Shown here piece after piece: positions 1,555 through 38,330 of a DNA stretch of 39,071 nt. This DNA comes from Candidatus Terrybacteria bacterium (lineage in GTDB: Bacteria; Patescibacteriota; Minisyncoccia; UBA9983): assembly GCA_016208535.1 (NCBI GenBank), contig JACQXW010000006.1, forward strand, positions 1 to 39,071. The letters run 5' to 3'. The position numbers and the translations under genes are program-made. Numbering within the stretch: the first letter of the stretch is position 1; each line of letters begins with the position of its first letter. Under the pieces are notes generated by a model. The model was not told the origin of the DNA. It saw only the letters and a program-made list of their open reading frames with translations, and searched no databases.

Positions 1555-3597
1555 TTATTCTAGAGACAATATAATAAAAACACCTTTAAAAGTCAAGGAA
1601 AGTGAAAAAATTAGAAAATTATCTCTTCCCTCTAAAATTATTGTTTCTGCGGGGCGGACGGTCGCCGTTTCTGTCCCTTCCATTGCCTCGCTGGTCAAGT
1701 TCTGGTTTGTAGTCCAGATTGGCTTGTTTGAGAGATAAATCGCCGCGCTTGTGTCCTTATGATTTTTGCCGGTGATGAAAACCGAACCGTCCTGCTCAAT
1801 GTCAATTTCTGCGCCGGTTTTTTCTGTAATGCTTTTTATCATTTTTCCTCCAGGGCCGATAACCGCTCCGATCTTGTCTGAATCAATCATAATTTTCACA
1901 ATTCTTGGAGCAAAAACGGAAAGCTCTTTGCGCGGTTCTGGAATTTCTTTGAGCATCGCCTCCATAATCTCCATTCTCGCCTTTTTGGCTTGCGCCAAAG
2001 TTTTTTCCAAAATCTCAACAGAAACACCATCAACTTTTACATCCATTTGAATGGCAGTGATGCCGTTTTTTGTGCCCGCGCATTTAAAATCCATATCGCC
2101 ATGATGATCCTCCGGCCCCTGAATATCAGTCAAAATCTTATACTGCTGTCGGCTGTCAGCTGTCAGCTGTTGGCTCATTATGAGTCCCATGGCAATGCCG
2201 GCCACTGGTTCTTTTATGGGCACGCCTGCGTCCATTAAGGCCAAAGTTGAGGCGCAAACCGAACCCTGCGAGGTGGAGCCGTTTGAAGCCATTGATTCTG
2301 AAACAATTCTGATGGTGTATGGAAACTCCTCGCGCGAAGGAATGACAGGAAGCAATGCCTTTTCCACCAAGGCGCCGTGGCCGATCTCGCGCCTGCCCGG
2401 ACCGCCCATCCTGCCTGTTTCGCCGGTGGAAAACGGAGGAAAATTATAATGGTGCATAAAATGCTTTTCTGTCTGCACCTCCATTCCCTCAATAAGCTGA
2501 ACATCTTTTGGTCCGCCAAGAGTCAAAATGGAAAGAACATGGGTTCCACCTCTGTAAAAAATTCCTGAGCCGTGCAAAACCGGCAATATTCCGGCCCTGG
2601 CGTATAAAGATCTGATCTCGTCAATTTTTCTTCCATCCGGCCTTTTTTCTTCGCCAGCCGGCGAATCCAAAATTTCTTTGTGAATTATGTCATTAATTCT
2701 GTTTTCAAAATGGTCGTCAGCCAAAAACGCGTTTTCCTCGCCGAATTTTTCCATGGCAATTTTCATCCAAAGCGTTTTTGCCTCGCCAATTTCCTCTTTT
2801 GCTCCTGAAAAAATCGCCCTTTCCGCGCTTTCCAGTGCATTCTTATCAAAAAAGCCCTTCATCTCAGCCGGCTCTTCTTTAATCTCAGGAATAATTTTTT
2901 TCTTGCCAATATCAGCAATTATTTCTTCCTGGAATTTTTGGATTTTTGCGATTTCATCAGCCGCTTTTTCCAGCGCCTTTACTACTGTGTCCTCTGGAAT
3001 TTCAAACGCGCCCGCTTCAATCATATTTATTTTTCCATCCTTTCCGCAAGCAACAATGTCCAATAAACTTTTCTTGCGTTCCTCAAAAGTCGGGTTGACG
3101 AGAAAATTATTTCCGCCAGCTGGCGGAACAAGTCCGATTCTCACTGCCCCAACCGGGCCACTCCAGGGAATATCGGAAATGGCGAGCGCCAAAGAACCTG
3201 CCAATATTGCCGGCACATCTGAATCGTTTTCTCTGTCAACAGCAAGAGCAAGAACCGTAACCTGTATCTCGTTGCGGATGCGGCTGTCAAACAAAGGCCG
3301 AATGGTGCGGTCAATCGCCCTGCCGGTCAAAATCGCCTCTTCCGACGGTCTGCCCTCCCTTCTCATAAAACGGCTGCCCAAAATCTGGCCAGCGGCGTAA
3401 AATTTTTCTTCATAATCAACAGTCAAAGGCAAATAATCTATGCCTTCGCGCCTGTTTTTTGACATAACAGATGTGGCAAAAACCGCTGTTTCGCCATAAC
3501 GGACAAGTACAGAGCCGTTGGCCTGGTCTGCCAAATCGGAGATTTCCACGGAAAGCTTCTTTCCGCCAAAATCAGTTTCATATGTTTTTGTTTGCAT
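1555..3597 (-). CDS. pnp: Polynucleotide phosphorylase; S1 domain deleted with frameshift near 1740
   Basis: PLTVDYEEK, RRE(G/I), SNGSTS, GDMDFK and KH IGPGGK motifs; likely start MQTKTYE at 3597; native C-terminal tail lies in another frame (1738-1619). Confidence 0.93.
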   Translation of the reverse strand: MQTKTYETDFGGKKLSVEISDLADQANGSVLVRYGETAVFATSVMSKNRREGIDYLPLTVDYEEKFYAAGQILGSRFMRREGRPSEEAILTGRAIDRTIRPLFDSRIRNEIQVTVLALAVDRENDSDVPAILAGSLALAISDIPWSGPVGAVRIGLVPPAGGNNFLVNPTFEERKKSLLDIVACGKDGKINMIEAGAFEIPEDTVVKALEKAADEIAKIQKFQEEIIADIGKKKIIPEIKEEPAEMKGFFDKNALESAERAIFSGAKEEIGEAKTLWMKIAMEKFGEENAFLADDHFENRINDIIHKEILDSPAGEEKRPDGRKIDEIRSLYARAGILPVLHGSGIFYRGGTHVLSILTLGGPKDVQLIEGMEVQTEKHFMHHYNFPPFSTGETGRMGGPGRREIGHGALVEKALLPVIPSREEFPYTIRIVSESMASNGSTSQGSVCASTLALMDAGVPIKEPVAGIAMGLIMSQQLTADSRQQYKILTDIQGPEDHHGDMDFKCAGTKNGITAIQMDVKVDGVSVEILEKTLAQAKKARMEIMEAMLKEIPEPRKELSVFAPRIVKIMIDSDKIGAVIGPGGKMIKSITEKTGAEIDIEQDGSVFITGKNHKDTSAAIYLSNKPIWTTNQNLTSEAMEGTETATVRPAETIILEGRDNFLIFSLSLTFKGVFIILSLE

Positions 3598-3732
3598 ATA
3601 AATAAAATGTAGAAAGTAGAATGTTGAAAGTAGAATCAATAAATCATATTCCACTCTCTGCGCTCCACTCTCTACTTAATTAAATTGGTAATGGTTTTAG
3701 TGTAGCAAAAGGCGGTAAAAAATCAACAATTT

Positions 3733-3972
3733 TTATATTATTAATTTAATTATTGCGACAATGGCGACAACTGCCCAAATTAAATTTAAGACCACTGGCT
3801 GATAATTTTTATCATTAAAAGCATCTGCCACAATTCCCACCGCACCTGTTCCGTTAAGAATCAGATACAAAAGATCAGTTGGTTTTATAAAAGAAAAAGT
3901 TACCATAATATAGGCCGCGACAATTGCCACAACTCCGTACCAACCTAAAATTTCAGTAATTTTATTTTTCAT
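3733..3972 (-). CDS. Small membrane protein (CBU_0592-like)
   Basis: 79 aa, three hydrophobic segments, GWYG..AY, Y..LN..GA, YQP..LN..W pattern. Confidence 0.7.
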   Translation of the reverse strand: MKNKITEILGWYGVVAIVAAYIMVTFSFIKPTDLLYLILNGTGAVGIVADAFNDKNYQPVVLNLIWAVVAIVAIIKLII

Positions 3973-3975
3973 ATC

Positions 3976-4494
3976 CTACCCCTTTATCAAAAACTTTTTC
4001 GGGTTTTCATCAAGGTCGGTGAAGTCGTCGGCTGTTTCCCGTAGTTTTGAGGAGGTGGATTTGCCAAAGGCAATCACCTCCACGCGCCTGCCTTGATTTT
4101 TCAGATATTCAACTAACGGCACATAATCTCCATCTCCGCTGGCCAAAATAATCACATCAACCAAAGATAATGTTTTGATGGCGTCAACCGCCAAGCCCAC
4201 GTCCCAATCTGCCTTTTTCATTCCGCCGTAGTATTCCTGCAATTCCTTGCTTTTTATTTCAATACCCAATTTTGTGAGCGCCTCAAGAAAAGGCTTTTCC
4301 TCTCCGGTTTTTGTGGTCACCACATAGGCAAAGGCGCGCACCAGCTGCCTGTCCCCTACCGCTGTATCCAAAAGTTCTTTAAAATTTACGCGCCTCTGGT
4401 AAATGGCTTTGGCAGAATGGTAAAGATTCTGCACGTCAATCAAAACCGCCACCCGCTGATTTTTATATTTTGATGAGGAGAAAATTGAAATCAT
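3976..4494 (-). CDS. NYN-domain (LabA/DUF88) protein
   Basis: IDVQN, KADWDVGLAVD, SGDGDY motifs. Confidence 0.92.
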   Translation of the reverse strand: MISIFSSSKYKNQRVAVLIDVQNLYHSAKAIYQRRVNFKELLDTAVGDRQLVRAFAYVVTTKTGEEKPFLEALTKLGIEIKSKELQEYYGGMKKADWDVGLAVDAIKTLSLVDVIILASGDGDYVPLVEYLKNQGRRVEVIAFGKSTSSKLRETADDFTDLDENPKKFLIKG

Positions 4495-4501
4495 AAATAA
4501 T

Positions 4502-4771
4502 TTATTTTTTTAATCCCAGTTTTTTCGCCAATGCCCCGTGCCTTTTGGCGCTCTTTTTTACTAGATAACCCATCAACGCCCTTCTCTTTGCCACCATCTT
4601 CAAAAGACCAAGGCGCGAATGAGTGTCTTTTTTATGTTTTTTGAGATGTTTTGCCAATTCGTCAATCTGCTTGGTCAAAACAGCAACCTGCACCTCAGGC
4701 GAGCCGGTATCTTTTTCATGCACCTTGTATTCTCCGATGATTTTCTGTTTTTTCTTTGTGGCTAATGCCAT
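4502..4771 (-). CDS. rpsO: 30S ribosomal protein S15
   Basis: DTGSPEVQVA, HKKDTHSRLGL; likely start MALATKK at 4771 (89 aa). Confidence 0.97.
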   Translation of the reverse strand: MALATKKKQKIIGEYKVHEKDTGSPEVQVAVLTKQIDELAKHLKKHKKDTHSRLGLLKMVAKRRALMGYLVKKSAKRHGALAKKLGLKK

Positions 4772-4833
4772 TATTTGGAATATACCAAAAATCCCAACTT
4801 TTTGCAAATTAAATATTTTGATATACTGAAATA

Positions 4834-5745
4834 ATGTTGTGCGACATAAAAACTTTACATAAGCAATTTCTTGAATATCTTGAAATTGAAAAAGGGAGGA
4901 GCTTGAAGACGGTTGAAAATTACGACCGCGATTTGCGAAAGTTTTTTGAATTTTCCAAAATTAAGACGCCTGATGAAATCACTGACGAATCTGTCCGTAA
5001 TTTTCGTCTTTGGCTCAACAGAAAGGAATTAAAGAAAAAAACGCAGAATTATTATTTGATAAGTTTGCGGGTATTCTTAAAATATCTTGCAAAAATGGGG
5101 ATAAAATCTCTGCCAGTTGAAAGGATTGAACTGGCTAAGATACCTCAAAGAGAACTTGACCTTATTACTGAGGAAGAACTTTCCAGATTATTAGACGCAC
5201 CAAAGGGCGGTCCGCCAGCTGGCGAATTAAAGACCTCGCGCGACAAAGCCATTCTGGAATTATTATTTTCCACTGGCTTGCGCGTTTCAGAATTATGCTC
5301 TCTGAATCGCGACCACATCACAGACGCTCGGGCTGGCGAGTTTTCCGTGCGCGGAAAAGGCGATAAAATAAGGGTAGTTTTTCTATCAGACAGCGCCCAA
5401 AAAGCCATTAAAGATTATTTAAATAAAAGGACGGATACTGAAGAGGCGCTTTTTGTGTCAATTTCCAATTCCCAATTTCCAATTTCCAATAATCGTCTCA
5501 CTCGGCGCTCAATCGAACGAATCGTAAAACATTATGCCCTTAAGGCCGGCATTGCCAAAAAAGTGACACCCCATGTCCTCCGCCACTGCTTTGCCACAGA
5601 TTTGCTTTCCAACGGCGCCGACCTGCGCTCTGTCCAATCCCTGCTCGGCCACGCCTCCATCACCACCACGCAGATATATACCCATATTACAGATAAACAA
5701 TTAAGAGAAGTGCATAAAACGTTCCATAATAAACGAAGAAAATAA
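4834..5745 (+). CDS. Tyrosine recombinase XerC/XerD family
   Basis: TGLRVSEL, GKGDK, TPHVLRH, LGHASITTTQIYTH catalytic residues. Confidence 0.93.
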   Translation: MLCDIKTLHKQFLEYLEIEKGRSLKTVENYDRDLRKFFEFSKIKTPDEITDESVRNFRLWLNRKELKKKTQNYYLISLRVFLKYLAKMGIKSLPVERIELAKIPQRELDLITEEELSRLLDAPKGGPPAGELKTSRDKAILELLFSTGLRVSELCSLNRDHITDARAGEFSVRGKGDKIRVVFLSDSAQKAIKDYLNKRTDTEEALFVSISNSQFPISNNRLTRRSIERIVKHYALKAGIAKKVTPHVLRHCFATDLLSNGADLRSVQSLLGHASITTTQIYTHITDKQLREVHKTFHNKRRK

Positions 5746-5746
5746 A

Positions 5747-7231
5747 TTACTTCACATACCACTTCTTTCTGATCTCTTCTATTTCCTTTTTCTCCACCTC
5801 CTCCTTTGTTTCCTTCGCTTTTTTACCTAATTTCTCCATTTCTTTTTCTGGCAAAGCATTGAGTTCTTTTGCCCTCTTTTCAAGCCATTCTTCGGTATTT
5901 CTTGCAGGTTCGTCCAGTACTTCCTCAAGCAAAATATGCAGAATCTGGCCGATTTTTGGCCCTGGTTTCACGTGCAACAATTCTATAATTTTATTGCCGT
6001 CAATTTTGAGCATGCCAACAGAAAGCGGCTGCCGCAATGCCTCATCTATCATTGATTCATATTTGCGCAACCGATAAGGCGTTTCCTTTGGTTTGCCCAT
6101 GCCGATTCTGTCGCTAAATCTTACCTTCATTAAATCCCAGACATTTTCCGGCCCCACATTGCGCACAGTCCGGCGCACAGCAGAAAGAGTAATTTTCTCT
6201 GTATCTGAGAAAAACATATGATAGCGGATAAGTTTTGCCACCAGTTCAATGGTTTTTTTAGAAAATTTAAGCCGAGACAAAGCTCTTATCGCCATTTTGG
6301 CGCCAATTATCTCGTGGCCATAAAAGGTATAATCTTTTTTTTCTTTGCTCCATTGCCGAGAGGCGGGCTTGCCAACATCATGCAAAAGCGAAGCAATCCT
6401 TACCTCCAGAGGCCAGTTCTTGTCAGCTGCATGATCCAAAGCCTTCAAATTATGCTCCCAAACCGGGTATAAATGATCTTTGTTCTGTTTGACGCCATAC
6501 CCCTCTTCTAATTCCGGCAGAATATATTTCAACACCCCAAATTCCCGCATCATTTCAAAACCAATACTTGGCCTATCGGACATTATAATTTTAATAAATT
6601 CGTCTCTAATCCTCTCTTTGGAAATCATTTCCAAAAGATGCGCCTGTTTTTTAATGGCCTCTTGTGTTTCACGTGCAACCTTCCAGCCCAATTCTGCGGC
6701 AAAACGAATAGCCCTTATAATCCGCAAGGCATCTTCATCAAATCTCTCCTTTGGATTACCTACTGTCCGAATGATTTTGTCCTTTATGTCCTTTTGGCCA
6801 TTAAATAAATCAATTAACTTATTATCCATCCCTTCGACTACGCTCAGGGCAAGAGCATTTATCGTAAAATCCCGCCTCTTTAAGTCATCTTCAATGTTTC
6901 TCGTGAAACGAACCTCGTCCGGGTGCCGCTTGTCAGAATATTTTGCCTCCAGACGATAAGGGGTTATTTCAATAATTTTTAAACTCGGGTCATCAGCATC
7001 AGTAATAACTGCCACTGTGCCGAATTTGTTTTCATAAACTGTTTTTGGAAATAATTTCTGGATTTCCTCTGGTTTGGCATTAGTGGTAATGTCCCAATCT
7101 TTGGGTCCGCCAGCTGGCGGATTTTCCATCAATAAATCGCGCACGCAACCGCCAACCAAATAGGTCTCAAAACCGGCGTCTTTTAAAACTTGCGCTGTTT
7201 TAGAAATTATTTCAGGAATTTTAAAATCCAT
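5747..7231 (-). CDS. cca: CCA-adding enzyme / tRNA nucleotidyltransferase with HD domain
   Basis: VGGCVRD, DWDITT, RRDFTINA, EDALRIIRAIRF, LLHDVGK. Confidence 0.9.
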   Translation of the reverse strand: MDFKIPEIISKTAQVLKDAGFETYLVGGCVRDLLMENPPAGGPKDWDITTNAKPEEIQKLFPKTVYENKFGTVAVITDADDPSLKIIEITPYRLEAKYSDKRHPDEVRFTRNIEDDLKRRDFTINALALSVVEGMDNKLIDLFNGQKDIKDKIIRTVGNPKERFDEDALRIIRAIRFAAELGWKVARETQEAIKKQAHLLEMISKERIRDEFIKIIMSDRPSIGFEMMREFGVLKYILPELEEGYGVKQNKDHLYPVWEHNLKALDHAADKNWPLEVRIASLLHDVGKPASRQWSKEKKDYTFYGHEIIGAKMAIRALSRLKFSKKTIELVAKLIRYHMFFSDTEKITLSAVRRTVRNVGPENVWDLMKVRFSDRIGMGKPKETPYRLRKYESMIDEALRQPLSVGMLKIDGNKIIELLHVKPGPKIGQILHILLEEVLDEPARNTEEWLEKRAKELNALPEKEMEKLGKKAKETKEEVEKKEIEEIRKKWYVK

Positions 7232-7257
7232 ATTATTTTTGCGCCCGGCAGGATTCG

Positions 7258-7368: not shown

Positions 7369-7391
7369 TAAAAACCCTAGCGTGATACTTG

Positions 7392-10935: not shown

Positions 10936-12516
10936 ATGAAATACAAACCCGTGGTTTTAATCATCCTTGATGGATTCGGGATTTCGCCGGACAAAATTGG
11001 CTCGCCGTGGGAGATTGTTGAGAGAAAAACTTTTCATGATATAGAAAAATTTTATCCCTTTACCGCCATCCAGGCCTCAGGCATTGCCGTGGGCCTGCCC
11101 TGGGGCGAGGCAGGGAACAGCGAGGTTGGACACCTCACCATTGGCGCCGGCAAAATCATTTATAATTATCTGCCAAAAATTTCCACTGCCATTACCGACG
11201 GCTCGTTTTTTAAGAATGATGCTTTTCTCAGGGCGATTGAACACGTAAAAAAAAATAATAGTTCCCTCCATCTTTCCGGACTTTTTTCCTCAGGCACGGT
11301 TCACGCCTATTTCGAGCATCTTTACGCCCTCTTGGATCTGGCCAAACAAAATGAAGTAAAAAATGTCTATCTCCATCTCTACACTGACGGCAAAGACGCC
11401 TACAAAAAAGAGGGGATGAAATTCTATAAAGATTTTGAGCAAAATCTCAAAAAAAATTATCCCAACGCAAAAATCGCCTCCATCATCGGCAGGAATTTCA
11501 GTATGGACAGAGATAATAATTGGAATAAAACAGCCAGAGCTTACAATCTTTTTGTAAATGGAGAGGGAGAGGAATTTGAATGTGTTTCCGATTATATTGC
11601 CAGCCAGTATAAAAAAGAAATTTTTGACCCAAATATCGAGCCCGCCTTCGCTAAAGCTACTGCGGGCAAGCCCGGTATTATTAAAGACAATGATGCTCTA
11701 ATTTTTTTCAATTTCCGCGAGGATAGCATGAGGCAATTAACCAGGGCTTTTGTCAGCAAAGATTTTTCCCATTTTCCACGCAAGAGCATCAATAATCTCT
11801 TGGTTGTCACCATGACTGAATATGACAAAAATATTCCCTGTTTAACCGCCTTTAAATCAGCAGAAGTAGAAGAACCCTTAGCCAGAATTATTGCGGAAAA
11901 CGGCCTTAAACAGCTTCATATTGCTGAATCAGAAAAATACGCCCATGTCACTTATTTTTTGAATGGCGGCAGAGAAACTTCGTTTGAAGGTGAGGAAAGA
12001 ATCCTGGTGAAGTCCCCGGAAACTCCTTCCTATGCCTTAGTGCCGGAAATGTCTGCGGAAAAAGTGACTGAGGCTGTTTTGGACAATCTTGAAAAATACG
12101 ACTTCATTGTCGTTAATTTTGCCAATGCCGACATGGTGGGCCACACAGGGAAATTCGAGCCCACAGCCAAGGCCATTGAGACAATTGACAGATGTCTGGG
12201 AAAAATAATCCCTGCGGTTTTAAAGATAAACGGAGTGATGGTCATCACCGCTGACCATGGCAATGCCGAAGAAAAAATTTACAAAATCACGGGCGAGGAA
12301 AAATCAAAACACTCCATCAACCCTGTGCCCCTTTATCTCATTGCCACTGATTTTAAAAGAAAAAAGGAGGAAACAGAAAAGGAAATCATTGACGATTACA
12401 AAGACATCAAAGGAACCCTCTCTGACGTGGCTCCGACAATTTTGGAATTACTCGGCCTAAAAAAACCGGCCTCTATGACTGGTAAAAACCTGTTAGAAAA
12501 ATTACTTAGTTCTTAA
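10936..12516 (+). CDS. gpmI: 2,3-bisphosphoglycerate-independent phosphoglycerate mutase
   Basis: [39 protein letters not shown]. Confidence 0.96.
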
Positions 12517-15568: not shown

Positions 15569-15601
15569 TTAGTAATTAGTAATTAGTAATTAGTAATTAG
15601 T
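15569..15601 (+). repeat. TTAGTAA heptamer tandem array upstream of dnaA
   Basis: Four perfect units plus a partial one, running into TATAAT at 15601-15606. Confidence 0.9.
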
Positions 15602-15612
15602 ATAATCAGGTT

Positions 15613-16977: not shown

Positions 16978-17115
16978 CTAATTAATAAATAATCCATAAA
17001 TTATCCACATTACTAATTACTGATTACTAATTACTGATTACTTAAAATTAACTTATCAACATATTAACAGAGTAAATAATAAAAATAAAAAATTATTAAT
17101 TAATATATTATTATT
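16978..17115. promoter_or_regulatory. Probable oriC (dnaA-dnaN intergenic region)
   Basis: Perfect DnaA box TTATCCACA 17001-17009, TTATCAACA 17053-17061, very AT-rich stretch 17074-17115; another near-box CTATCCACA at 15527-15535. Confidence 0.8.
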
Positions 17116-18493: not shown

Positions 18494-20643
18494 TACCCAT
18501 TTTCTTTTGCCCATTTTGCGACCGGCCATTCCCAAAGCGAAAATTGGGAATCATGTTCCGGATTTTGCGGCTGGGGACCAAGAGGGTTATCTTTGTTCAG
18601 CCAATAGAGAATTTCGTGGATTTGAGGGGTGTCAGCCAAAGGCTGACCAGCCTCGGGCTGGGTGGTTGAAGTTGAGGTTGCCTGTGCCAGCCAGTCTCCT
18701 GCCAAAATCGGCTTTGGTTCAGGCAGGGGAATCGGCTTTTCAAAATTTTCAACTGGCAGTTTTTTAAAAACCTCTGTCAAAAAAGCATTCCATAAGGGAG
18801 CGGCGATAAAGCCAGCCACTTTTTTCTCCATTGGCGTGTTGTCATTATTCCCAGCCCACACCCCCACAGCCAGATTTGGCGTATAGCCCATTACCCAGGC
18901 GTCGCGGTAATTGTTGGTGGTGCCGGTTTTCACCGCCACTGGCCGGTCTGAAAAATAAAGCCAGGACATCTGCCCAAATGCCGGCGCCCTTGCCTCATTA
19001 TCAGTGAGAATATCGGAAATCAAAAGGCTGATGTTTTTATCAATAACCTGCTGGGGAGAGGAGGCAAATTTTTCCAAAGTTTTTCCGTTTCTGTCCTCAA
19101 TTTTTAAAATGCCGGTCACAGGATTTCTCGCCCCGTTATTGGCAAAGACCGCATAGGCGCCGGTTAATTCTAAAGGAGTGACTTCGCCTCCGCCCAAGAC
19201 TAAAGTGAGGCCGTACCTGTCAGGGTCGGTTAAAGAGGTGATGCCCATGTCTCTAGTGGTTTGTAGAGAATCTCTTAGCCCGGCCAGATAAAGAACTTTT
19301 ACTGAGGGGATGTTGATGGATTGGGCCAGGGCATTGCGCAAACTAACCGGGCCGCGAGTTAGGTTGTCATAATTCTCCGGCATATAGCAATCTTCCGGTT
19401 TTACGCCTGGTTGGGGAGTGCCGTCAGGATTGCAAGAGGCGTTGAATTCTGTCAGCAGATCAAAAACAACAGTATTGGGTGTGTATCCTTTTTTAAAGGC
19501 AGTGGCATAGACAAAGGGCTTGATACTGGAACCGGGCTGGCGGTGCGCCAAGGTGATATTAAAATTTCCCTCTTCCTCCACATTAAAATAATTTTTTGAG
19601 CCGACCATGGCAAGAATCTGGCCGGTTTTTGGGTCAATGGCCACCAAACCGGCGTTTGAGGCGTTGAATTTTTCCTTGTTCTCCTTGGCGAATTTTAGCA
19701 CCAGTTCTTCCGCTATTTGTTGGAGATTATAATCCAAGGAGGTGGCAACTCTAAGCCCGTCTTCCTCTATCGCGTCTTTGCCGTATTTTTTCTCCAGATA
19801 AGACCTGATAAAGATTGAGAAATGAGGGGCCTTGAGAGAATTGTCAGCCTTGCTGACAAATTTAACTTTTTCTTTTTTTGCCTTTTCTGCTTCTTCTTGC
19901 GCGACAAATCCCAATTCAGCCATTCTGCTTAAAACCAAATTTTTCCGCTCCTCAAGTTCGTTCCGATGTTCTCCATAGGGAGAGTAATAAGTCGGCGCCT
20001 TGGCTAGGCTGGCAAGATAGGCGGATTCTACCAAAGTCAGCTGACGGGCCGGTTTGTTGAAAAAATTCTGACTGGCCGCCTCAATGCCGTAACTGCTGCC
20101 GCCATAGGGGATTTCATTCAAGTAAAGATTTAAAATTTCCTCTTTGGGAAGCATTTTTTCTATTTTGACAGCCAAGATGAGTTCTTTTATTTTTCTTTCA
20201 ATACTTTTCTCTCTGGTGAAAAACGTGTTTTTGACCAATTGCTGGGTGATGGTGGAGCCGCCCTGTTTTGCGCTGCCGGTGATGAAATCAACAAAGAGGG
20301 CGCGCATTATTGCTCGCAGATCAACTCCCTTGTGCTGGTAAAAAGAGGAATCTTCAATGGCCACGGTGGCGTTTTTGATGTGCCTGGAGATTTGGTCAAA
20401 AGGCGCCACTGTGCGCTGGATGTTTTGATGGATGTCCCATAATAAAATTTTTCCGGTGCGGTCATAGATTTTCGTGGATTCAATCACCTTTCGCTCATTG
20501 AAAGATTGGAGGTCGGGAATTTTCAGATTGCTTGCCCATGTGGCAATAATAAGCGTTCCCAAAGCCACCCCTGCCACGCAAAGCGCCGTCAGGCTGTAAA
20601 AAATCCGAGCAGTCCGCCAACCGGCGGATTTTCTTTTTCTCAT
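18490..20643 (-). CDS. Class A penicillin-binding protein (transglycosylase/transpeptidase)
   Basis: EDSSF, GGSTITQQLVKN, RQPGSSIK, SIN, KTGT. Confidence 0.95.
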   Translation of the reverse strand: MRKRKSAGWRTARIFYSLTALCVAGVALGTLIIATWASNLKIPDLQSFNERKVIESTKIYDRTGKILLWDIHQNIQRTVAPFDQISRHIKNATVAIEDSSFYQHKGVDLRAIMRALFVDFITGSAKQGGSTITQQLVKNTFFTREKSIERKIKELILAVKIEKMLPKEEILNLYLNEIPYGGSSYGIEAASQNFFNKPARQLTLVESAYLASLAKAPTYYSPYGEHRNELEERKNLVLSRMAELGFVAQEEAEKAKKEKVKFVSKADNSLKAPHFSIFIRSYLEKKYGKDAIEEDGLRVATSLDYNLQQIAEELVLKFAKENKEKFNASNAGLVAIDPKTGQILAMVGSKNYFNVEEEGNFNITLAHRQPGSSIKPFVYATAFKKGYTPNTVVFDLLTEFNASCNPDGTPQPGVKPEDCYMPENYDNLTRGPVSLRNALAQSINIPSVKVLYLAGLRDSLQTTRDMGITSLTDPDRYGLTLVLGGGEVTPLELTGAYAVFANNGARNPVTGILKIEDRNGKTLEKFASSPQQVIDKNISLLISDILTDNEARAPAFGQMSWLYFSDRPVAVKTGTTNNYRDAWVMGYTPNLAVGVWAGNNDNTPMEKKVAGFIAAPLWNAFLTEVFKKLPVENFEKPIPLPEPKPILAGDWLAQATSTSTTQPEAGQPLADTPQIHEILYWLNKDNPLGPQPQNPEHDSQFSLWEWPVAKWAKENGY

Positions 20644-22073: not shown

Positions 22074-22577
22074 TTAAAAATTCCTGTGGATAACTGAGAT
22101 AGAGCAAGTTAGGGCGCAGGCAATGGCATCAATTTCGTCATCGTATTTAGGGGCTTTTTTAAGATTCAAGATGGCAATAGCCATTTTTTGCACCTGTGTT
22201 TTTTCTGCCCTGCCATACCCGGTCATTGCCATTTTTATCTCCAGGGGCGTGAATTCCAACACAGGAATTTTTGCCTTAGCCGCAAGATATAAAATCATGC
22301 CCTTGGCCTCTGCCACTCCGATGATAGTCTTCTGGTTTTTAAAGAAAAATAATTTTTCAACGGCAATTACATTTGGCTTGTGTTTTTTTATTATTTTTTC
22401 CAGTTTTTCTCCGAGCGCTAACAGCCGCTTTTCGTGCGCAAGTTTTTTGTCGGTTGTAACACAAGTAGAATATAGTAAGGTTTCTCGCCTCTTCGGCGAG
22501 TCAGCCGAAGAGGCTGATTTCTCCAAAACCGCGCATCCCATTCTTCCAAATCCAGGATCAATGCCCAATATAATCAT
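22074..22577 (-). CDS. ruvC: Holliday junction resolvase RuvC
   Basis: ILGIDPG, AVEKLFF, GYGRAEK, DDEIDAIA; likely start 22577. Confidence 0.95.
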   Translation of the reverse strand: MIILGIDPGFGRMGCAVLEKSASSADSPKRRETLLYSTCVTTDKKLAHEKRLLALGEKLEKIIKKHKPNVIAVEKLFFFKNQKTIIGVAEAKGMILYLAAKAKIPVLEFTPLEIKMAMTGYGRAEKTQVQKMAIAILNLKKAPKYDDEIDAIACALTCSISVIHRNF

Positions 22578-27035: not shown

Positions 27036-27557
27036 ATGAAAAAAATTTCAATTTCAATCAAGCAGACAAAAGAAATTGCCGGAATTCTGGCGAGAAAAAT
27101 CCTTCGACTGCGCTCAGGACGAGGGGCGGTTATTGTCGGCTTGTCCGGGGAATTGGGAAGCGGGAAGACGACCTTTAGCCAATGCTTTGCCAGGGCGCTG
27201 GGTATTAAAGAAAAAATTCACAGCCCGACGTTTGTAATATTTCGGAAGCACGAAATCCGAAATCCGAAATCCCTGCCCGCAGATGCTTCACATCAAGCGA
27301 TGCAGGCGGGCGAAACAAATTCAAAATCAAAAAATCAAAAATTCAAAACCCTTTATCATTTTGATGTCTATAGAATAAAAAAACCTAAAGAAATAATTGA
27401 TTTGGGTTGGAGAAAAATAATTTCCGACTCAAAGAACATAATTTTGGTGGAATGGCCGGAGAAAATCAAAAAAATTTTCCCAAAAAAACATTTTTGGATA
27501 AATTTTACCCACCTTGCCCCAAAAAAGAGAGGTATTGACATTTATTTGCATAAATAG
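27036..27557 (+). CDS. tsaE: tRNA t6A biosynthesis ATPase TsaE with repeat-derived insertions
   Basis: GELGSGKTT, SPTF, HFDVYR, VEWPE. Confidence 0.95.
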   Translation: MKKISISIKQTKEIAGILARKILRLRSGRGAVIVGLSGELGSGKTTFSQCFARALGIKEKIHSPTFVIFRKHEIRNPKSLPADASHQAMQAGETNSKSKNQKFKTLYHFDVYRIKKPKEIIDLGWRKIISDSKNIILVEWPEKIKKIFPKKHFWINFTHLAPKKRGIDIYLHK

Positions 27558-30528: not shown

Positions 30529-31419
30529 ATGAAGACTTTGGTTCTGATTGACAGCCATGCGGTTTTGCATCGCGCCTTTCACGCCCTGCCGAATTTTACC
30601 TCTCCGCTTGGCGAGCCCACTGGCGCTCTTTATGGTTTTTCTTCCTTTCTTTTGAAAATCATCAATGAACTCAAGCCGGATTATATTGCCGCCTGCTACG
30701 ATCTGCCGGAACCGACTTTCAGGCATATTGCCTACGAGCATTATAAGGCAAAGAGGCCGAAAATGGATGACGAACTTGCCGCTCAAATTAATCGCTCGCG
30801 CGACATCCTTAAGGTATTTAATATTCCTGTTTACGATTCACCGGGATTTGAAGCAGATGATATTCTTGGCACAATCGTAGAACAATTGAAAATTGAAAAT
30901 TGTAAATTGAAAATTATTATTGCCTCTGGCGATCTTGATACCTTGCAATTGGTGAAAGATGACGATGTGGTTGTTTACACCTTGTCCAAGGGGATTAAGG
31001 AGGCGGTGATTTATAATGAAGATAAAGTGAGGGAGCGCTACGGTTTTGGCCCGGAATTAATTCCTGATTTTAAGGGGTTGAAGGGCGATCCCTCGGACAA
31101 TATCATTGGCGTTGCCGGCATAGGCGAAAAGACAGCCAGGGAATTGATTGAGAAATTCGGCTCTCTTGAAAATTTATATAATTTATATAAGAAGAAGGGG
31201 GAATTAAAACCAAGGATATCAAAGCTTTTGGAGGAGAATGAGGAGGAGGCGAGATTTAGCAAGGTTTTAGCTGAAATAAGAAAGGATGCGCCGATTAATT
31301 TTTCTCTGGAGGAAAGCGCCTGGAAAAAAACGACTGATTTGGGAAAAGTCAAATCTCTTTTCAGGGAATTCGGCTTCAAGAGTTTGGTTGATAGATTGGA
31401 GCAATATGTTAAAATTTAA
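30529..31419 (+). CDS. Stand-alone 5'-3' exonuclease (Pol I N-terminal/FEN domain)
   Basis: LID, YKAKR, FEADD, SGDLD, GDPSDNI.GV.GIGEKTA; ends at 296 aa without polymerase domain. Confidence 0.92.
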   Translation: MKTLVLIDSHAVLHRAFHALPNFTSPLGEPTGALYGFSSFLLKIINELKPDYIAACYDLPEPTFRHIAYEHYKAKRPKMDDELAAQINRSRDILKVFNIPVYDSPGFEADDILGTIVEQLKIENCKLKIIIASGDLDTLQLVKDDDVVVYTLSKGIKEAVIYNEDKVRERYGFGPELIPDFKGLKGDPSDNIIGVAGIGEKTARELIEKFGSLENLYNLYKKKGELKPRISKLLEENEEEARFSKVLAEIRKDAPINFSLEESAWKKTTDLGKVKSLFREFGFKSLVDRLEQYVKI

Positions 31420-31821: not shown

Positions 31822-32613
31822 ATGCTCTATCTTCTTTATGGCAAAGATATATTAAGAAGCAGAAAGAAACTCAATGAGATTCTGGATTTTTTTCGTTCTA
31901 AAAATAAAGATGTTTCAATTTTCAAGATTGATGAATATGATTTTGAAAAAGAAAAATTAGAGGAACTACTTGGCGCCAACACCCTTTTTGGCGGAAAGGT
32001 GGTTGTTGTTTTTAACAGGATTTTAGGCGAGGAAAGTGTTTCCCGGATGATTATGGAAAAAATTGACCGTTACGCGGCGTCAAAAAATATTTTCATTTTT
32101 TACGAAGAAGAAGTGGATAAGGATATTCTTGGTTTGTTTAAGGAAAACTCAGCGAAGATTCAGAGATTTGATAAAGGACCGTCCTTCGCCAAAGGCGAAG
32201 GACGGTCCTTTAAAGGCGAGGGTCGGGTTTTTTTTGCTATTTGCGACGCTGTGGCTGAGAAAAATAATATCCGGGCGTGGATATTGTTCCAGCAGGCGCT
32301 GATGGATGGCATTGACGCGGAGGAAATTTTCTGGAAAATCTGGTGGCAGATTAAAAGCTTGCTGATGGTTAAAAATTTATTTGAATTATCCCAAGGACCG
32401 ACCTTCGCGGGACGCGAAGGTCGGTCCTTCAGTTTAGAAAAAGAAACCGGCCTGCATCCTTATGTGGTAAAAAAGAATTTATCAGCCATTCATAATTTTG
32501 ACAAGAGCGAACTCCAAAATTATTCGTTTCATCTCGTGAAACTCTATCATGACGCCCGCCGTGGTATGGCTGATTTTGAAATCGGCCTTGAAAAAATTCT
32601 AATAAGCATATAA
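31822..32613 (+). CDS. holA: DNA polymerase III delta subunit-like
   Basis: MLYLLYG start, TLFG, F.ICDA, LHPYVVKK, LEKIL. Confidence 0.85.
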   Translation: MLYLLYGKDILRSRKKLNEILDFFRSKNKDVSIFKIDEYDFEKEKLEELLGANTLFGGKVVVVFNRILGEESVSRMIMEKIDRYAASKNIFIFYEEEVDKDILGLFKENSAKIQRFDKGPSFAKGEGRSFKGEGRVFFAICDAVAEKNNIRAWILFQQALMDGIDAEEIFWKIWWQIKSLLMVKNLFELSQGPTFAGREGRSFSLEKETGLHPYVVKKNLSAIHNFDKSELQNYSFHLVKLYHDARRGMADFEIGLEKILISI

Positions 32614-32701: not shown

Positions 32702-33220
32702 TTATGTGTGGCGGTCGGCTAAGACGAAAGCGCAGAAAGAATCAGGTTTGATAATCGCCTCAAAGCCGTATCCCTTAACCATTCCCACCACATTTTCAAT
32801 GAAATCTTTTGTGGGGCCGTTTTTGCCCACATCCAGATGAACTGTAATCTTATTATCCCCGCCTGCCATCTGGCGGGCAGGCCAGAAAAATTCCTCTCCC
32901 AGTCTATCTTTTAACTGGCTTTTTAATTCCTGAACAAACATTATGGAATGCATGGTTTCTTTGTAAATTCTGTCGCGGAGGGTTGGGCAGAAAGTTTTTT
33001 CCGATTTTGTCCAGAAATATTTCCCGCCGTTGCCCACGCGCAAGACAGCAATGGCTGTCACAAAATGGGTTTCATTGCTACCCTCAGAATCCGTTCCCAC
33101 GGTAATTTTATACCGGCCTCCAGATTCATTATTCACATATTTTACGATTTCCTCAACAACTTCCTCAAAACTAATGTGTCTTTTTAAGGTTTCGTTGTAA
33201 AATTGTATGTTATCCGACAT
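32702..33220 (-). CDS. RNase H-like YkuK (DUF458) family protein
   Basis: VGTDS, FVTAI, GNGG, VHLDVG.NG.T, IKPDS..A...AD. Confidence 0.88.
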   Translation of the reverse strand: MSDNIQFYNETLKRHISFEEVVEEIVKYVNNESGGRYKITVGTDSEGSNETHFVTAIAVLRVGNGGKYFWTKSEKTFCPTLRDRIYKETMHSIMFVQELKSQLKDRLGEEFFWPARQMAGGDNKITVHLDVGKNGPTKDFIENVVGMVKGYGFEAIIKPDSFCAFVLADRHT

Positions 33221-34595: not shown

Positions 34596-35450
34596 TTAAA
34601 GTTTTTGGTGAGTGGGGCAAAAGTGTGCCGAGCGGCCGGCGATTCTTATTTTTTTAATAATTCCGTTGTCTTTCTTTTTGCATTTTTTGCCGGTTTGCTG
34701 GTAGGCATAATGCATTTTTTGGTAATTTCCTTTGCGGCCAAAGGCATCGCGGTAATCAATATAAGAGCTGCCGCGCGCTTTAATTGCTTTATTGAGAATT
34801 TGTTTAATGGCTTTGTAAATATTTTTAATTTCCTCTTCTTTGAGTTTTTGCGCCGGTTTTAAGGGATGCACGCCAGCCAGCCAGAGAATTTCGTCGCTGT
34901 AGATATTGCCGATGCCAGCGATTACACTTTGATCCATCAAAACGATTTTTATCTTGCCGGATTTTCCCCTCACTATTTTTTTAAACTCAACAAAGGATAA
35001 TCCTTTGTCAAACGGGTCGGGACCAATATTCCTGAATTCTTCGGGGATTTTTTCCGTTGCCAAAATAACCACCTTGGCGAACTTGCGCATGTCGCAGAGC
35101 GCGAGCTGCCAGCCGTTAGATAAAAAGAAAATAAGATGAATGAAGCGGTTTTCCGGGTCGCGCAAGGGGCCGGGGATGGCGCTTTGCCACGCGCCGTTTT
35201 TCTTTTGCCATTTGCCGTAAAGTAAATGGCCGGTCATTTTTTGGTGCACCAGAAGAGTGAGGCTTTTATCAAGATGAATCAAAATATTTTTCCCCCGGCG
35301 TTCAACTTTTAAAATTTTTCTGCCAACAACTTCTTTCTTGATATTCTTTGGCAATTTTTTCAGATCAGTCCAAACATCCCGGATTTTCAACCCCGGCAAA
35401 ACTTTTTTCAAATCATTGACAATTGTTTCTACCTCAGGTAATTCTGGCAT
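34596..35450 (-). CDS. mutM: Formamidopyrimidine-DNA glycosylase
   Basis: MPELPEVE, RRGK, GIGNIYSDE, C-terminal zinc finger-like region. Confidence 0.96.
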   Translation of the reverse strand: MPELPEVETIVNDLKKVLPGLKIRDVWTDLKKLPKNIKKEVVGRKILKVERRGKNILIHLDKSLTLLVHQKMTGHLLYGKWQKKNGAWQSAIPGPLRDPENRFIHLIFFLSNGWQLALCDMRKFAKVVILATEKIPEEFRNIGPDPFDKGLSFVEFKKIVRGKSGKIKIVLMDQSVIAGIGNIYSDEILWLAGVHPLKPAQKLKEEEIKNIYKAIKQILNKAIKARGSSYIDYRDAFGRKGNYQKMHYAYQQTGKKCKKKDNGIIKKIRIAGRSAHFCPTHQKL

Positions 35451-35974: not shown

Positions 35975-36006
35975 GTTTTATAAAGTTTTACATAATTTAC
36001 ATAATT

Positions 36007-36038
36007 TAGCACTTACTAGCTATGGCCAGTAAGTGCTA
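36007..36038. repeat. Palindrome copy 1 flanking PaaX-like gene
   Basis: TAGCACTTACT-AGCTATGGCC-AGTAAGTGCTA. Confidence 0.85.
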
Positions 36039-36052
36039 GTTTTTATAATTAA

Positions 36053-36607
36053 TTATTCCAATTCAAAGTGATGCTTAAGGTGTAGTTCGTTGTCTATTGA
36101 TTCGGCCACCATAAATCTCACAAATTTTCTGATGTCATAAACTTCTATTATGTATTCTATCTCATCTTGGCAGTCATAGGGATGGGCGAACACGCTTTTC
36201 TGAAATTGATAAAATCCGAGATTATTCAGATGATTTCTAAGAGCCTCTCTGATTTTCTTTCCATTTTTTGGAATATCAAATAAAACAATTCGCCACTTGC
36301 CATCCCATTGTTCCGGTTTTTTTATTTTCATCTCGTCAAGATTATAAGTGAGTGCCTTTTGTTTTCCTTTGTCGGTGAGAAATAAGGTGACAGTGCCGTC
36401 GGAATTTTCTTTTTCTTTGACAAGTTTTGATTCGTATAATTTTTTGATGGCGCGCCGCAAGGCCTGACGGTCGATATTTTTCCATTCTTCTTTTAATCCC
36501 TTGATAACCCTGAAGCTGGTTTTAGGGGAGTGGGAAAGACCGAGGGCCAACCCGGCCATTAAGAGAAGCAATATTTTCTTTTGAGTATCTCCAAGCCCAC
36601 GCGACAT
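36053..36607 (-). CDS. PaaX-like protein (winged HTH + Cas2-like central domain)
   Basis: A..KL...KLV...LTDKG wHTH; WDGKWRIVLFDIP and LGF..FQKSVF..P. Confidence 0.85.
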   Translation of the reverse strand: MSRGLGDTQKKILLLLMAGLALGLSHSPKTSFRVIKGLKEEWKNIDRQALRRAIKKLYESKLVKEKENSDGTVTLFLTDKGKQKALTYNLDEMKIKKPEQWDGKWRIVLFDIPKNGKKIREALRNHLNNLGFYQFQKSVFAHPYDCQDEIEYIIEVYDIRKFVRFMVAESIDNELHLKHHFELE

Positions 36608-36672
36608 AAATTTATTATCAGTTTTATAATTTTATCGTTGATTCCATTTTAAAACAGCTAAATAGTAAATCA

Positions 36673-36702
36673 AGCACTTATAAGCCATGACTGGTAAGTG
36701 CT
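36673..36702. repeat. Palindrome copy 2 flanking PaaX-like gene
   Basis: AGCACTTA-TAAGCCATGACTGG-TAAGTGCT. Confidence 0.85.
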
Positions 36703-36733
36703 AATTTGTACAGTATCGTTAAATTTTTTAGTG

Positions 36734-36761: not shown

Positions 36762-36767
36762 GAGTAT

Positions 36768-37039
36768 TAATGGCACCTATCGGAGGATAGTGATTTGTCG
36801 GCAGTAAGCTGATGATCTGTCGTAGAGGCAGGGGCCGGTGATCTCGGAAAAGGTTTCATTCCAAAAGAGGATTGATTCCTTTCCCCATAAGATCCTAGAT
36901 TCAGCGAAAGTATTGGATAGAATACTTGGCGCTCATCCGGAGAGCAAAAAGGAGATATTTTCTCAAGCTCCATCTATCCCACGCAATTATAGTATAGTTC
37001 TTTTTAAAAAGCCCAAGGGTTAAACCTGAGGGTTTTTTT
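36768..37039 (+). ncRNA. Candidate structured non-coding RNA
   Basis: Promoter upstream, terminator downstream, no credible ORF, series of hairpins with G-U pairs on the + strand. Confidence 0.45.
37006..37039. terminator. Bidirectional intrinsic terminator
   Basis: AAAAAGCCC-A-AGG-gttaaa-CCT-GA-GGGTTTTTTT, just past the murE stop. Confidence 0.7.
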
Positions 37040-37046
37040 ATTTTGT

Positions 37047-38330
37047 TTATTTTGTGCTTAAAATTTTTCGCAGTTCTTCGCGGGCGGTTTCTCTGTCGTC
37101 CCATTTTATTTTTGTTCCCTTTGGGCCCATGAGCCATGGTTCGCTGCCCTTGCCGGTGATTATCACTGCGTCGCCGGTTTGGGCATAAGAGAGCGCCTTG
37201 GCTATTGCCTCGTGTCTGCCCAAAATGATTTCAAAATTGGAATTTGGAAATTGGTCATTGGAAATTCCAGATTTTATATCTAATAAAATCTGGTTGGGGT
37301 CTTCGTCATAAGGATCTTCATTTGTGAGAATTATTTGGTCGCAGTGTTTGGAGGCGATTTTTCCCATTTCTGGCCGCTTCCATTTATCCCTTCCTCCGCC
37401 AGCAGAACCGAGCACACAAACTTTGCGCGAGGTCTGGAAAGTTTCATAAACTTTTTCCAAGGAATCGGGCGTGTGGGCATAATCGACTATTACAGAGAAA
37501 TTTTGCCCCTCATCAATTTTTTCCAGCCGGCCTTCTATCCCCTGAAATTTTTCTATCGCTTTTTTTATCGTTTCATTTCCGATATTTTGCGTTTTGCAAA
37601 AGGCGACGGCTGCCAAAATATTATAAAGATTGAACAAGCCGGAAAGTTTTGACTTTATTTCTATGTTGTCAAGAATGAAACTTAATCCGTCTTTTTGCAG
37701 ATTGTAATTTGAAACGTCTTTTAATCCGTATTTTATTTTCTGCGGAATATCAAATTTTAAAAAATACGGAGCAGCCGAGTCATCTTCATTAACTACCGCT
37801 AGCCTTCGTTTCTCTCTTGATTTTTCCAAATCCCTGAAATATCTCAATTTGGCGTCGCGGTATGCCTCAAACGAGCCGTGCGACTCAATGTGCTCGGGCG
37901 CGAGATTGGTGAAAATAAGCGCGTTTGTTTTTATGAATTTGTTTCTGTGCTGGACGGCGCCCTCAGAGGTCATTTCCAAAACAGCGTATTGGCATTTTTC
38001 TTTTACCGCCCTGCGCAAAAATTTTTGCAGAAAAAATCGGCCGGGCATTGTCATTTTGTATTCGTTTTTCCATGATTCTCTGCCGACCTTGAAGTGGAGA
38101 GAGGAGGTAAGGCTGGTTTTAAATCTCGCCTCTTCCAAAATGGCGCTGATAATTTCAATTGTGCTGGTTTTACCTTTGGTGCCGGTGACGCCAATCACAA
38201 AAATTTTCCGCGAGGGAAAGCGATAAATCACGGCCGCCAAAAAAGCCATCAGCCAGTGGTAAACCGGCTGCAGCGCCTTAAAAATCTTTTTCGGAATTAT
38301 TTTCCGTGCCAATCTTAAAATTTTTTCCAT
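37047..38330 (-). CDS. murE: UDP-N-acetylmuramyl-tripeptide synthetase MurE
   Basis: GVTGTKGKT, EMTS, DYAHTPD, GGGRDKWKRP.MG, EDP, GKG.E. Confidence 0.92.
   Translation of the reverse strand: MEKILRLARKIIPKKIFKALQPVYHWLMAFLAAVIYRFPSRKIFVIGVTGTKGKTSTIEIISAILEEARFKTSLTSSLHFKVGRESWKNEYKMTMPGRFFLQKFLRRAVKEKCQYAVLEMTSEGAVQHRNKFIKTNALIFTNLAPEHIESHGSFEAYRDAKLRYFRDLEKSREKRRLAVVNEDDSAAPYFLKFDIPQKIKYGLKDVSNYNLQKDGLSFILDNIEIKSKLSGLFNLYNILAAVAFCKTQNIGNETIKKAIEKFQGIEGRLEKIDEGQNFSVIVDYAHTPDSLEKVYETFQTSRKVCVLGSAGGGRDKWKRPEMGKIASKHCDQIILTNEDPYDEDPNQILLDIKSGISNDQFPNSNFEIILGRHEAIAKALSYAQTGDAVIITGKGSEPWLMGPKGTKIKWDDRETAREELRKILSTK

Follow-up and report, generated by a model that had tools for sequence, protein, structure and literature searches.

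The locus analyzed here raises the question of why so many core genes of a small bacterial genome contain short pieces of repeat-like DNA that leave their reading frames intact. The window, by which we mean the whole stretch of 39,071 nucleotides (nt) that was analyzed (contig JACQXW010000006.1 of the Candidatus Terrybacteria bacterium assembly GCA_016208535.1, contig C19 in our numbering), had been described in an earlier note as carrying about 20 palindromic and heptamer inserts, which were attributed to one active insertion system. Our results make it probable that the core genes of this ~0.5-Mb Paceibacteria-type genome have been colonized by several tiny selfish or dispersed repeat families. 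At least four classes can be distinguished: a Y-shaped element linked to GIY-YIG genes, an orphan 16-nt palindrome, dispersed 7-nt-periodic elements, and hairpins which flank RAYT-like genes.

The genome comprises 518,588 bp in 28 contigs with a G+C content of ~40%, and a crude gene call gave 555 genes with 90% of the genome coding. Based on DnaA, its closest named relatives are genomes assembled from metagenomes that bear the labels Candidatus Paceibacterota, Parcubacteria or Patescibacteria. Enrichment was measured against a third-order Markov shuffle of the whole genome and against ten codon shuffles of the coding DNA. Orthologs came from three relatives belonging to other genera (G006, G007 and G013), whose syntenic DNA was compared by codon-by-codon protein alignment, and the comparison was extended by the Xer sequences of 19 relatives and by RnpA homologues found in the protein database. 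The assembly was checked against contigs, which give the consensus only, of four groundwater metagenome runs, all belonging to a single study from which the window itself probably came. Proteins were modelled with AlphaFold2 on small alignments (9 sequences for RnpA, 20 for Xer), the phylum survey covered 301 Patescibacteria genomes, and partner genes were counted in 31 relatives.

Short in-frame inserts in core genes

Tiny repeats within genes were observed throughout the genome and beyond the window. Rows with a period of 7 accounted for 210 of the 644 rows returned by Tandem Repeats Finder for the whole genome (period 6, 30 rows; period 8, 42 rows), compared with 23 in the Markov-shuffled genome, and perfect hairpins with a G+C of at least 0.6 numbered 171 against 31 after shuffling. 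The earlier note had proposed a codon-shuffled background as a check, and over this background the motifs were strongly enriched, with 83 period-7 arrays in coding DNA against 0–2 per codon shuffle (n = 10) and 138 hairpin loci with a GC of at least 0.5 against 34–48. The exact 14-mer CCGCCAGCTGGCGG was found 16 times in the real whole genome and 0 times in codon-shuffled coding DNA. A period-7 array was present in 56 genes, a GC-rich hairpin in 109, and either of the two in 144 of the 555 genes, essential ones included; 136 of 174 GC-rich hairpin loci lay inside coding DNA. Hairpin family sizes obtained by single-linkage clustering were discarded, since unrelated families had been merged.

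The names given to the genes concerned were upheld by Pfam (pnp, xer, cca, gpmI, rnpA, PBP1A, ruvC, tsaE, the 5'-3' exonuclease, holA, the RNaseH-like ykuK and the Mur ligase). The features examined are listed below, with the strand where one was assigned, the peptide read in brackets and the basis of the assignment.

2145..2170, minus strand: heptamer array GCTGTCA x3.7 in pnp, +18 nt (LTADSR); Tandem Repeats Finder, and relatives without the insert
3112..3127: 16-nt palindrome TCCGCCAGCTGGCGGA in pnp (PPAGG), +15 nt against G007; ortholog alignment
5211..5226: palindrome variant in xer (PPAGE), +12 nt; Xer alignment
5459..5490, plus strand: heptamer array CAATTTC x4.6 in xer (SISNSQFPISN); Tandem Repeats Finder and Xer alignment
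7106..7121: palindrome in cca (PPAGG), +12 nt; G006, G013 and G007 are all without it
11638..11670, plus strand: element in gpmI, common to G006, no length change against G007; two more copies in the genome
15300..15368: 69-nt Y-shaped (three-way-junction) element in rnpA, in frame, 23 residues TPLETGFLRNPSALKESLSLTGS
15569..15602: heptamer TTAGTAA x4.9, intergenic, 10 nt upstream of dnaA; inverted with respect to the next array
17009..17042: heptamer ATTACTA x4.9, in the interval from dnaA to dnaN
18631..18660, minus strand: C-terminal element of PBP1A (QPEAGQPLAD); four-copy family, 95% over 21–22 nt, no length gain
20613..20628: palindrome variant TCCGCCAACCGGCGGA in the N-terminal tail of PBP1A, read SAGWR; the tail aligns poorly
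22487..22514: hairpin with stem 11 and loop 6 in ruvC, +21 nt (SSADSPK); single copy in the genome
26172..26228: intergenic pair of Y-element/cassette termini CCGTTAGAAAT...ATTTCTAACGG with an AT-rich interior
27236..27350, plus strand: composite in tsaE, +72 nt, 24 residues; 7-nt-periodic element with a 39-nt hairpin inside
30884..30915, plus strand: heptamer array AATTGAA x4.6 in the 5'-3' exonuclease gene (KIENCKLKI); Tandem Repeats Finder and ortholog alignment
32172..32212: long hairpin of the GCGAAGGAC family in holA (GPSFAKGEGRS)
32393..32429: second hairpin of the GCGAAGG family in holA, +33 nt (PTFAGREGRSF); ortholog alignment
32858..32881: 24-nt element of the CCTGCCCGC...GCAGGCGGG family in ykuK, clean insertion (PARQMAGG); ortholog alignment
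34990..35008: palindrome ACAAAGGATAATCCTTTGT in fpg, of the family that flanks a RAYT-like gene (contig C22); length as in G013
37234..37266, minus strand: heptamer array AAATTGG x4.7 in the Mur ligase gene (murE), +15 nt against G013, one relative

Insertions in pnp, xer, cca, rnpA, ruvC, tsaE, holA, ykuK and murE were missing from the compared relatives. The earlier figure of about 20 inserts was thereby reduced to ~13 which are lineage-specific and preserve the frame; four further sites (gpmI, the exonuclease array, the PBP1A C-terminus and the fpg palindrome) are family members which show no length change or are common to a relative, and two or three are not inserts. The latter include cca ALSVVEG and tsaE LRLRSG, which were rejected because they cause no change in length and merely share an 18-nt match with each other, while the N-terminal copy in PBP1A was unsupported as an insert, sitting in an unalignable tail. 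None of these elements of the window disrupts a reading frame, and the loss of frame in pnp at 1740 has an unrelated cause. Several families are present, in varied frames and on both strands, the 16-nt palindrome being read in all three frames and in both orientations.

Relatives carry private inserts of the same kinds, those of G006 lying in cca (a heptamer), in the MgtC gene (a stem-11 hairpin) and in ruvB (a 36-nt CCTGCCCGC...GCAGGCGGG element), which indicates that the process spans the family. A fold-back origin for hairpins that are unique in the genome was plausible for ruvC and was excluded by ykuK, where both arms are new. In holA (31756–32613), ~44 residues of both orthologues are gone at ~32.1 kb, exactly at the first GCGAAGG hairpin, and this loss may reflect either a true replacement or a further gap in the assembly.

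Across the inserts at 1500–21000 of the window, the contigs of the four runs showed 0 differences and no indel, which excludes an assembly artefact for these inserts. The same result leaves the description of the system as active without backing, and what the data do record is turnover over evolutionary time: presence or absence between genera, the nesting of one element in another, and palindrome copies that range from 0 to 36 within the family.

In both structure models the inserts fall in loops predicted with low confidence. The RnpA model (mean predicted local distance difference test, pLDDT, 80.8) places the insert, residues 37–59, between two strands, with pLDDT below 50 at residues 37–46 and 48–59. 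In the Xer model (mean pLDDT 81.6) the palindrome peptide is predicted at a loop that joins two helices and the heptamer peptide in the loop of a beta-hairpin, and over ten-residue blocks the pLDDT dips to 72 and 62 at the inserts compared with 85–91 for their neighbours.

The Y-shaped element and the GIY-YIG cassettes

The insert in rnpA, which is missing from RnpA homologues (73–79% identity), from G006 and from G007, led to the one family that could be resolved. When it was compared with its own genome by blastn, the matches fell at the edges of small GIY-YIG genes. These genes lie in cassettes of ~290 nt in which CCCGTTAGAGA stands ~20 nt before the start codon and TCTCTAACGGG overlaps the 3' end of an 86-residue GIY-YIG frame, and the rnpA insert consists of the cassette termini around two small hairpins, the gene being replaced. 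The same arrangement, CCCGTTAGAG... upstream and ...CTCTAACGGG at the 3' end, brackets the gene in 7/7 cassettes examined, which came from this genome and six others with proteins at least 66% identical. Homologues with at most 57% identity, and a second subfamily in the same genome, have different inverted termini. The genome holds eight small GIY-YIG genes (PF01541 at 65 bits on an 86–88-residue frame), the 86-residue protein being encoded at C1:16492–16752, and the best solved relative of the protein is 1zg2, of UPF0213.

The pattern CCGTTAGA N36–60 TCTAACGG matched 16 times in the genome, with 0 matches for the reversed control, and was found in 13 of the 31 relatives. The element spans 61–73 nt (core plus 4 nt on each side), with an outer stem of 14–17 bp in 16/16 copies and two inner hairpins in 10/16. 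The length-mod-3 comparison between coding and other regions which the earlier note had suggested came out in its favor for this element: all six coding copies have a core length of 1 mod 3 (61 or 64 nt), which makes the whole element 69 or 72 nt long, compared with 3/10 of the non-coding matches in that class (binomial p = 0.0014). The peptide PVRS...TSNG is read from 5/6 coding copies.

Among 21 copies from 6 genomes, 98% of the cells pair and changes on both sides occur at 16 of 26 pairs. The covariation score was 0.535, compared with 0.183 for shuffles (0/500 reach it) and 0.05–0.10 for slid partners; the weight of this score is lessened by the alignment being hand-chosen (10 structured copies from this genome, six AT-rich ones having been left out, and 11 from relatives) and by its outer-stem core being fixed by the search pattern. 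Most of the covariation is held by the inner helices, which the search pattern did not select. G-U pairs are rare in the stems, which fits a structure at the level of DNA, and no Rfam family was above threshold for the rnpA element.

Two of the GIY-YIG genes (C28:4149–4179 and C3:13772–13802) are split by one 31-nt palindrome, a net gain of 34 nt and a frameshift, and the arms of this palindrome resemble the cassette termini. These genes are dispensable, and the gain indicates that inserts which are not multiples of three occur where they are tolerated. At C4:32571–33000 of the same genome a GIY-YIG gene lies between a hairpin-laden partial copy resembling tRNA-Leu and an intact-looking tRNA-like sequence.

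The Y-shaped element is probably a miniature derivative of the ~290-nt cassette which has kept the same inverted termini. The nuclease of the cassette would most likely recognize or cut these ends in a structured form of DNA that is probably single-stranded, in the manner of Ssn nucleases, and copies would then spread through repair or copying at the break. In essential genes, the copies that survive have a length that is a multiple of three, are free of stops in the frame in which they are read, and lie in probably tolerant surface loops, other insertions presumably having been weeded out by purifying selection; the stop-free reading of GC-rich hairpins would come from base composition. Mobilization of the element by the GIY-YIG enzyme, the chemistry of insertion, the near-neutrality of the inserts and their translation are what we infer. 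That inserts are multiples of three and stop-free argues against their being skipped in translation. The view that these are repeat families at the level of DNA which add loop peptides to essential proteins, as proposed before, is retained, with translation presumed.

A broader form of this proposal can be offered tentatively, and we consider it somewhat doubtful: that structured elements linked to nucleases are found phylum-wide and have been selected, as elements, for a stop-free form in multiples of three, which would allow them to enter essential genes where intergenic DNA is scarce and to be translated into loop peptides, the palindrome and the heptamers being further layers with partners of their own, possibly four-helix-bundle (Avd-like) genes in the case of the heptamers. 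If true, much of the lineage-specific insert content of proteins of the Candidate Phyla Radiation (CPR) would be selfish DNA and not adaptation.

Heptamer-periodic elements, the 16-nt palindrome and RAYT-flanking hairpins

After merging, 144 heptamer arrays in 72 unit types were obtained, of which 79 are coding, 33 lie between genes and 32 fall at gene edges, so that their density per base is several times higher outside genes. Within the window an array often directly precedes a start codon, as it does for dnaA, ruvC, yebC, ykuK and the gene 33723–34556. Array length peaks at 30–34 nt, both in coding DNA (40/79) and outside it (27/65), and a composite, GAAGCACGAAATCCGAAACAAATTC, occurs with its variants at seven dispersed places, with a 52-nt AT-rich version at six. 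The narrow length and the dispersed composite copies indicate that the heptamer elements are no plain microsatellites.

The composite in tsaE, where the heptamer-periodic element is missing from orthologues, allows two insertion events to be ordered. A 39-nt hairpin CCTGCCCGC...GCAGGCGGG occupies 27272–27310, between GAAATC and CGAAAC of the periodic element, and removal of the 39 nt restores the 18-mer GAAATCCGAAACAAATTC, which is exact in four of six other copies and 1–2 bases off in two, so that the boundaries of the hairpin element are fixed within a base. The boundaries in tsaE and ykuK are ambiguous by 1–3 nt with no longer target duplication seen, clean empty sites being few. As a lead only, the partner of these elements could be the four-helix-bundle genes (PF05635/TIGR02436, with a weak resemblance to Avd), of which the genome has five, four with period-7 arrays at their borders.

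An unlikely alternative is that the arrays are simple-sequence repeats (SSRs) made in place by polymerase slippage and not mobile, of which only three-unit changes survive in genes. Heptanucleotide repeats are the commonest long class of SSR in many bacteria (PMC4679880), and the 72 unit types would suit such an origin. Two orthologous sites also point this way, as two other genera have arrays of different units, AATCTCA and AATCTCC, at the xer site, and at the exonuclease site G013 has an array of the same length with the unit AAACTAC and G007 a decayed one, each array being internally uniform, as after concerted change. The equal length of such orthologous arrays counts against slippage, however, and together with the difference in unit between genera it suggests either concerted change or rewriting in place. 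Against slippage stand also the narrow array length within and outside coding DNA, the recurrence of non-uniform composites at dispersed loci, as with the seven places of GAAGCACGAAATCCGAAACAAATTC, and the lack of any length variant in the contigs of the four runs, although contigs hide rare variants.

Two further heptamer sites were noted in the window. The dnaA gene is bracketed by inverted arrays of one heptamer (15569–15602 and 17009–17042), the second of which adjoins a DnaA-box-like sequence, TTATCCACA. At 3606–3636 an array of GTAGAAA lies in an N-terminal extension of the pnp frame, upstream of the start of homology at residue 19–20, and it is probably part of the 5' leader, outside the protein.

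The 16-nt palindrome TCCGCCAGCTGGCGGA was found in 36 copies when up to two mismatches were allowed, compared with 2 in the shuffle, and 33 of these were coding and 3 intergenic. Of 43 coding copies of its 14-nt core, 28 encode PPAGG, with 7 and 8 in the other frames (p = 3e-5), and other peptides read from palindrome DNA are SASWR and RQLAD. The variants keep the stem halves and mostly alter the central 4 nt, with a loop of 3–4 nt. Among the 301 phylum genomes the exact 14-mer has a patchy distribution in 54, which belong to many families, with up to 35 copies and 0–1 for reversed controls. Copies of the palindrome range from 0 to 36 among the genera of one family; G006, with 27, shares one of the four window sites, and at the pnp site it has the doubly compensated variant CCGTCAGCTGACGG. 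The xer copy is found at its site in 3/20 Xer genes and is missing from the closest relative (88–89% identity). In four other genomes 17 copies were examined at 16 loci, where the PPAGG frame was used by 3 of 11 in long frames and 6 lay in none, and some of these copies sit within larger repeats; the frame bias is specific to this genome or the four-genome sample is too small.

A quite unlikely alternative is that the palindrome, and perhaps other hairpins, are sites used by the host, such as those of a chromosome-organizing or regulatory dimer or of an uptake or recognition system, which are kept by selection and lie in loops for want of non-coding DNA. It draws on copies being proportional to coding content (33 coding, 3 intergenic), on conserved stem halves around a variable center and loop, on the doubly compensated palindrome that G006 keeps in pnp, on the identical 14-mer in 54 of 301 genomes of many families with 0–1 for reversed controls, and on no mobile partner having been found in the flanks searched. 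It is hard to reconcile with 0–36 copies among genera of one family, with only one of four window sites being common to G006 despite its 27 copies, and with the 6 of 17 copies in other genomes that lie outside long frames, some within larger repeats; a loop of 3–4 nt suits a hairpin better than a dimer site of fixed spacing, and no candidate binding protein was found. The palindrome and the 7-nt-periodic elements share the in-gene behavior described for the Y-shaped element, and no agent of spreading was found for either. In a distant genome, at 1490–2810 of L063 (G257:C15), inverted extended palindromes bracket a 1.27-kb GC-rich segment beside an AbiEii toxin gene; this segment, whose 343-residue frame has no family above cut-off, was set aside.

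That the inserts are adaptive as flexible linkers or interaction loops, their likeness in DNA being a by-product, is very improbable, since the placement of all modelled inserts in loops and the PPAGG reading of 28/43 coding palindrome copies are outweighed by the same DNA being read in three frames and on both strands as unrelated peptides, by the occurrence of the same families between genes and inside other repeats, and by conservation that falls on base-pairing and not on peptide sequence.

The fourth class is associated with Y1-transposase-like genes, of which the genome has five, four of them flanked by a hairpin of their own. These hairpin families have 2–16 copies and one site in the window, fpg, and the Y1 protein scored 33.4 bits on the RAYT model, which has a cut-off of 80.

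Origin of the inserts and comparison with known systems

Several observations weigh against colonization of the core genes by mobile repeat families. For the Y-shaped element, one relative (G026) has 28 pattern matches yet a single weak GIY-YIG match. In this genome the palindrome flanks no GIY-YIG, Y1 or four-helix-bundle gene, and the genes adjoining its two clear intergenic copies are ordinary; its solo half-sites (91 and 107; 59 and 77 after shuffling) are near background. In the 31 relatives its counts were untracked by those of Y1_Tnp, PF05635 or GIY-YIG, G030 having 13 copies with no Y1 match and G010 having 22 with no PF05635 match. The palindrome is also undepleted in coding DNA (33/36 in a genome that is 90% coding), unlike what insertion followed by selection would predict. 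No insertion polymorphism was seen at 1500–21000 of the window in the consensus contigs of one study. The members in gpmI, the exonuclease gene and fpg replace resident sequence without a change in length, which suggests conversion or an old ancestry more than a recent insertion, and some hairpins, such as that in ruvC, are single in the genome and thus form no families. We nevertheless favor colonization by several such families as the probable explanation.

The idea of a single insertion system is not upheld, since at least four classes were distinguished, whose partners differ and for some of which none was found. The earlier statement that no mobilizing enzyme could be identified is correct within the window and does not extend to the genome, with its eight GIY-YIG, five Y1-transposase-like and five four-helix-bundle genes. 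The search for genes flanked by repeats, also suggested earlier, gave GIY-YIG genes with the termini of the rnpA insert, 4/5 Y1 genes with hairpins of their own and 4/5 four-helix-bundle genes with period-7 arrays at their borders, and none for the 16-nt palindrome.

Rickettsia palindromic elements (RPEs) of ~150 bp, which lie in frame in housekeeping genes (Ogata et al. 2000, 2002), are described in the review PMC10969869. The elements of the present genome resemble them as dispersed palindromes in frame in unrelated housekeeping genes of a small genome, with a conserved peptide and positions compatible with the fold. They are unlike RPEs (~100–150 bp) in their length of 16–72 nt, in their many unrelated families, some of which are non-palindromic and 7-nt-periodic, in the phylum, and in the GIY-YIG candidate partner of one family, and the likeness is one of description. 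The analogy drawn in the earlier note holds for at least one family.

Ssn nucleases, which are single-strand GIY-YIG nucleases with NTS/SRM hairpin repeats, provide a second comparison (Chenal et al. 2025, PMC11893778). In that system, as here, a small single-domain GIY-YIG gene is bracketed by its own hairpin-forming repeat, which is also scattered in the genome, and nuclease subfamilies differ in motif; the elements described here differ in having a three-way junction or inverted terminus where SRM has a single hairpin, and in having in-frame copies in essential genes. Neither ATTCCC-N8-GGGAAT (dRS3) nor the NTS core had a match in the genome. As in a MITE, which is a miniature transposable element with inverted repeats, the terminal inverted repeats are common to a longer element that carries a gene, which, unlike in a MITE, encodes a GIY-YIG nuclease and no transposase.

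Repetitive extragenic palindromic (REP) sequences and REPINs, which occur with RAYT transposases, are by definition extragenic (Bertels and Rainey 2011, PMC3116915). Short GC-rich palindromes and inverted doublets are shared with that system, and the hairpins that flank 4/5 Y1-transposase-like genes may be a further resemblance. In contrast to it, 136/174 GC-rich hairpin loci and 33/36 palindromes lie in coding DNA, the Y1 proteins are below the RAYT cut-off and the flanking families are low-copy.

GC-rich hairpin mini-elements which invade AT-rich, gene-dense genomes include the GC clusters, double-hairpin elements and byp elements of fungal mitochondria. Unlike byp elements, the inserts here are in a bacterial chromosome, are multiples of three and stop-free, and give no hint of bypass or removal.

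The STRR repeats of cyanobacteria are heptanucleotide repeats comparable to the arrays of this genome. The arrays share with heptanucleotide SSRs an excess of tandem 7-nt units, 2–6 copies per set, a frequent position before start codons and a patchy distribution, and they differ in having 72 unit types and not one, in 79/144 arrays being coding in frame, in a fixed number of ~4.5 units and in dispersed composites. For bacterial heptanucleotide repeats slippage was proposed by Mrazek et al. 2007, as summarized in PMC4679880, which also covers the TAACTGA repeats of Beggiatoaceae and cyanobacteria.

The behavior is thus known in kind, being RPE-, MITE- and Ssn-like, and the heptamer literature covers the excess of 7-nt units and not their in-frame residence in essential genes or the composites. 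No published description of in-frame mini-repeats in core genes of Patescibacteria was found in the open-access literature searched. The colonization we propose would mean that selfish DNA can thrive inside the essential genes of a tiny gene-dense genome under a simple rule (multiples of three, no stops, loop targets). It would also provide a candidate enzyme–substrate pair in the 86-residue GIY-YIG protein and the covarying 61–73-nt DNA junction. Those who annotate CPR genomes or study their protein structures should be aware that many of the insertions taken as CPR-specific in conserved proteins may be repeat DNA, and short repeats would account for breaks or differences in assemblies of such genomes.

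Two gaps in the window were noted when it was compared with the public contigs. At 1740|1741 the contigs of all four runs have 232 extra bases, the loss of which leaves the window pnp without its S1 domain and changes the frame, so that the true C-terminus lies downstream in another frame. At ~7622 they have ~158 extra bases, and a UPF0102 (YraN) gene is consequently short by ~47 residues. A conserved 117-residue frame at 33354–33707, with orthologues in G013 and G007 and heptamer arrays directly downstream, matched no Pfam or NCBIfam family. At 36053–36607 a 184-residue protein has a PaaX-like central, Cas2-like domain, and hairpin repeats at 36003–36051 and 36659–36707, two copies of 43–49 nt that are 76–77% alike, flank its gene in a cassette-like layout.

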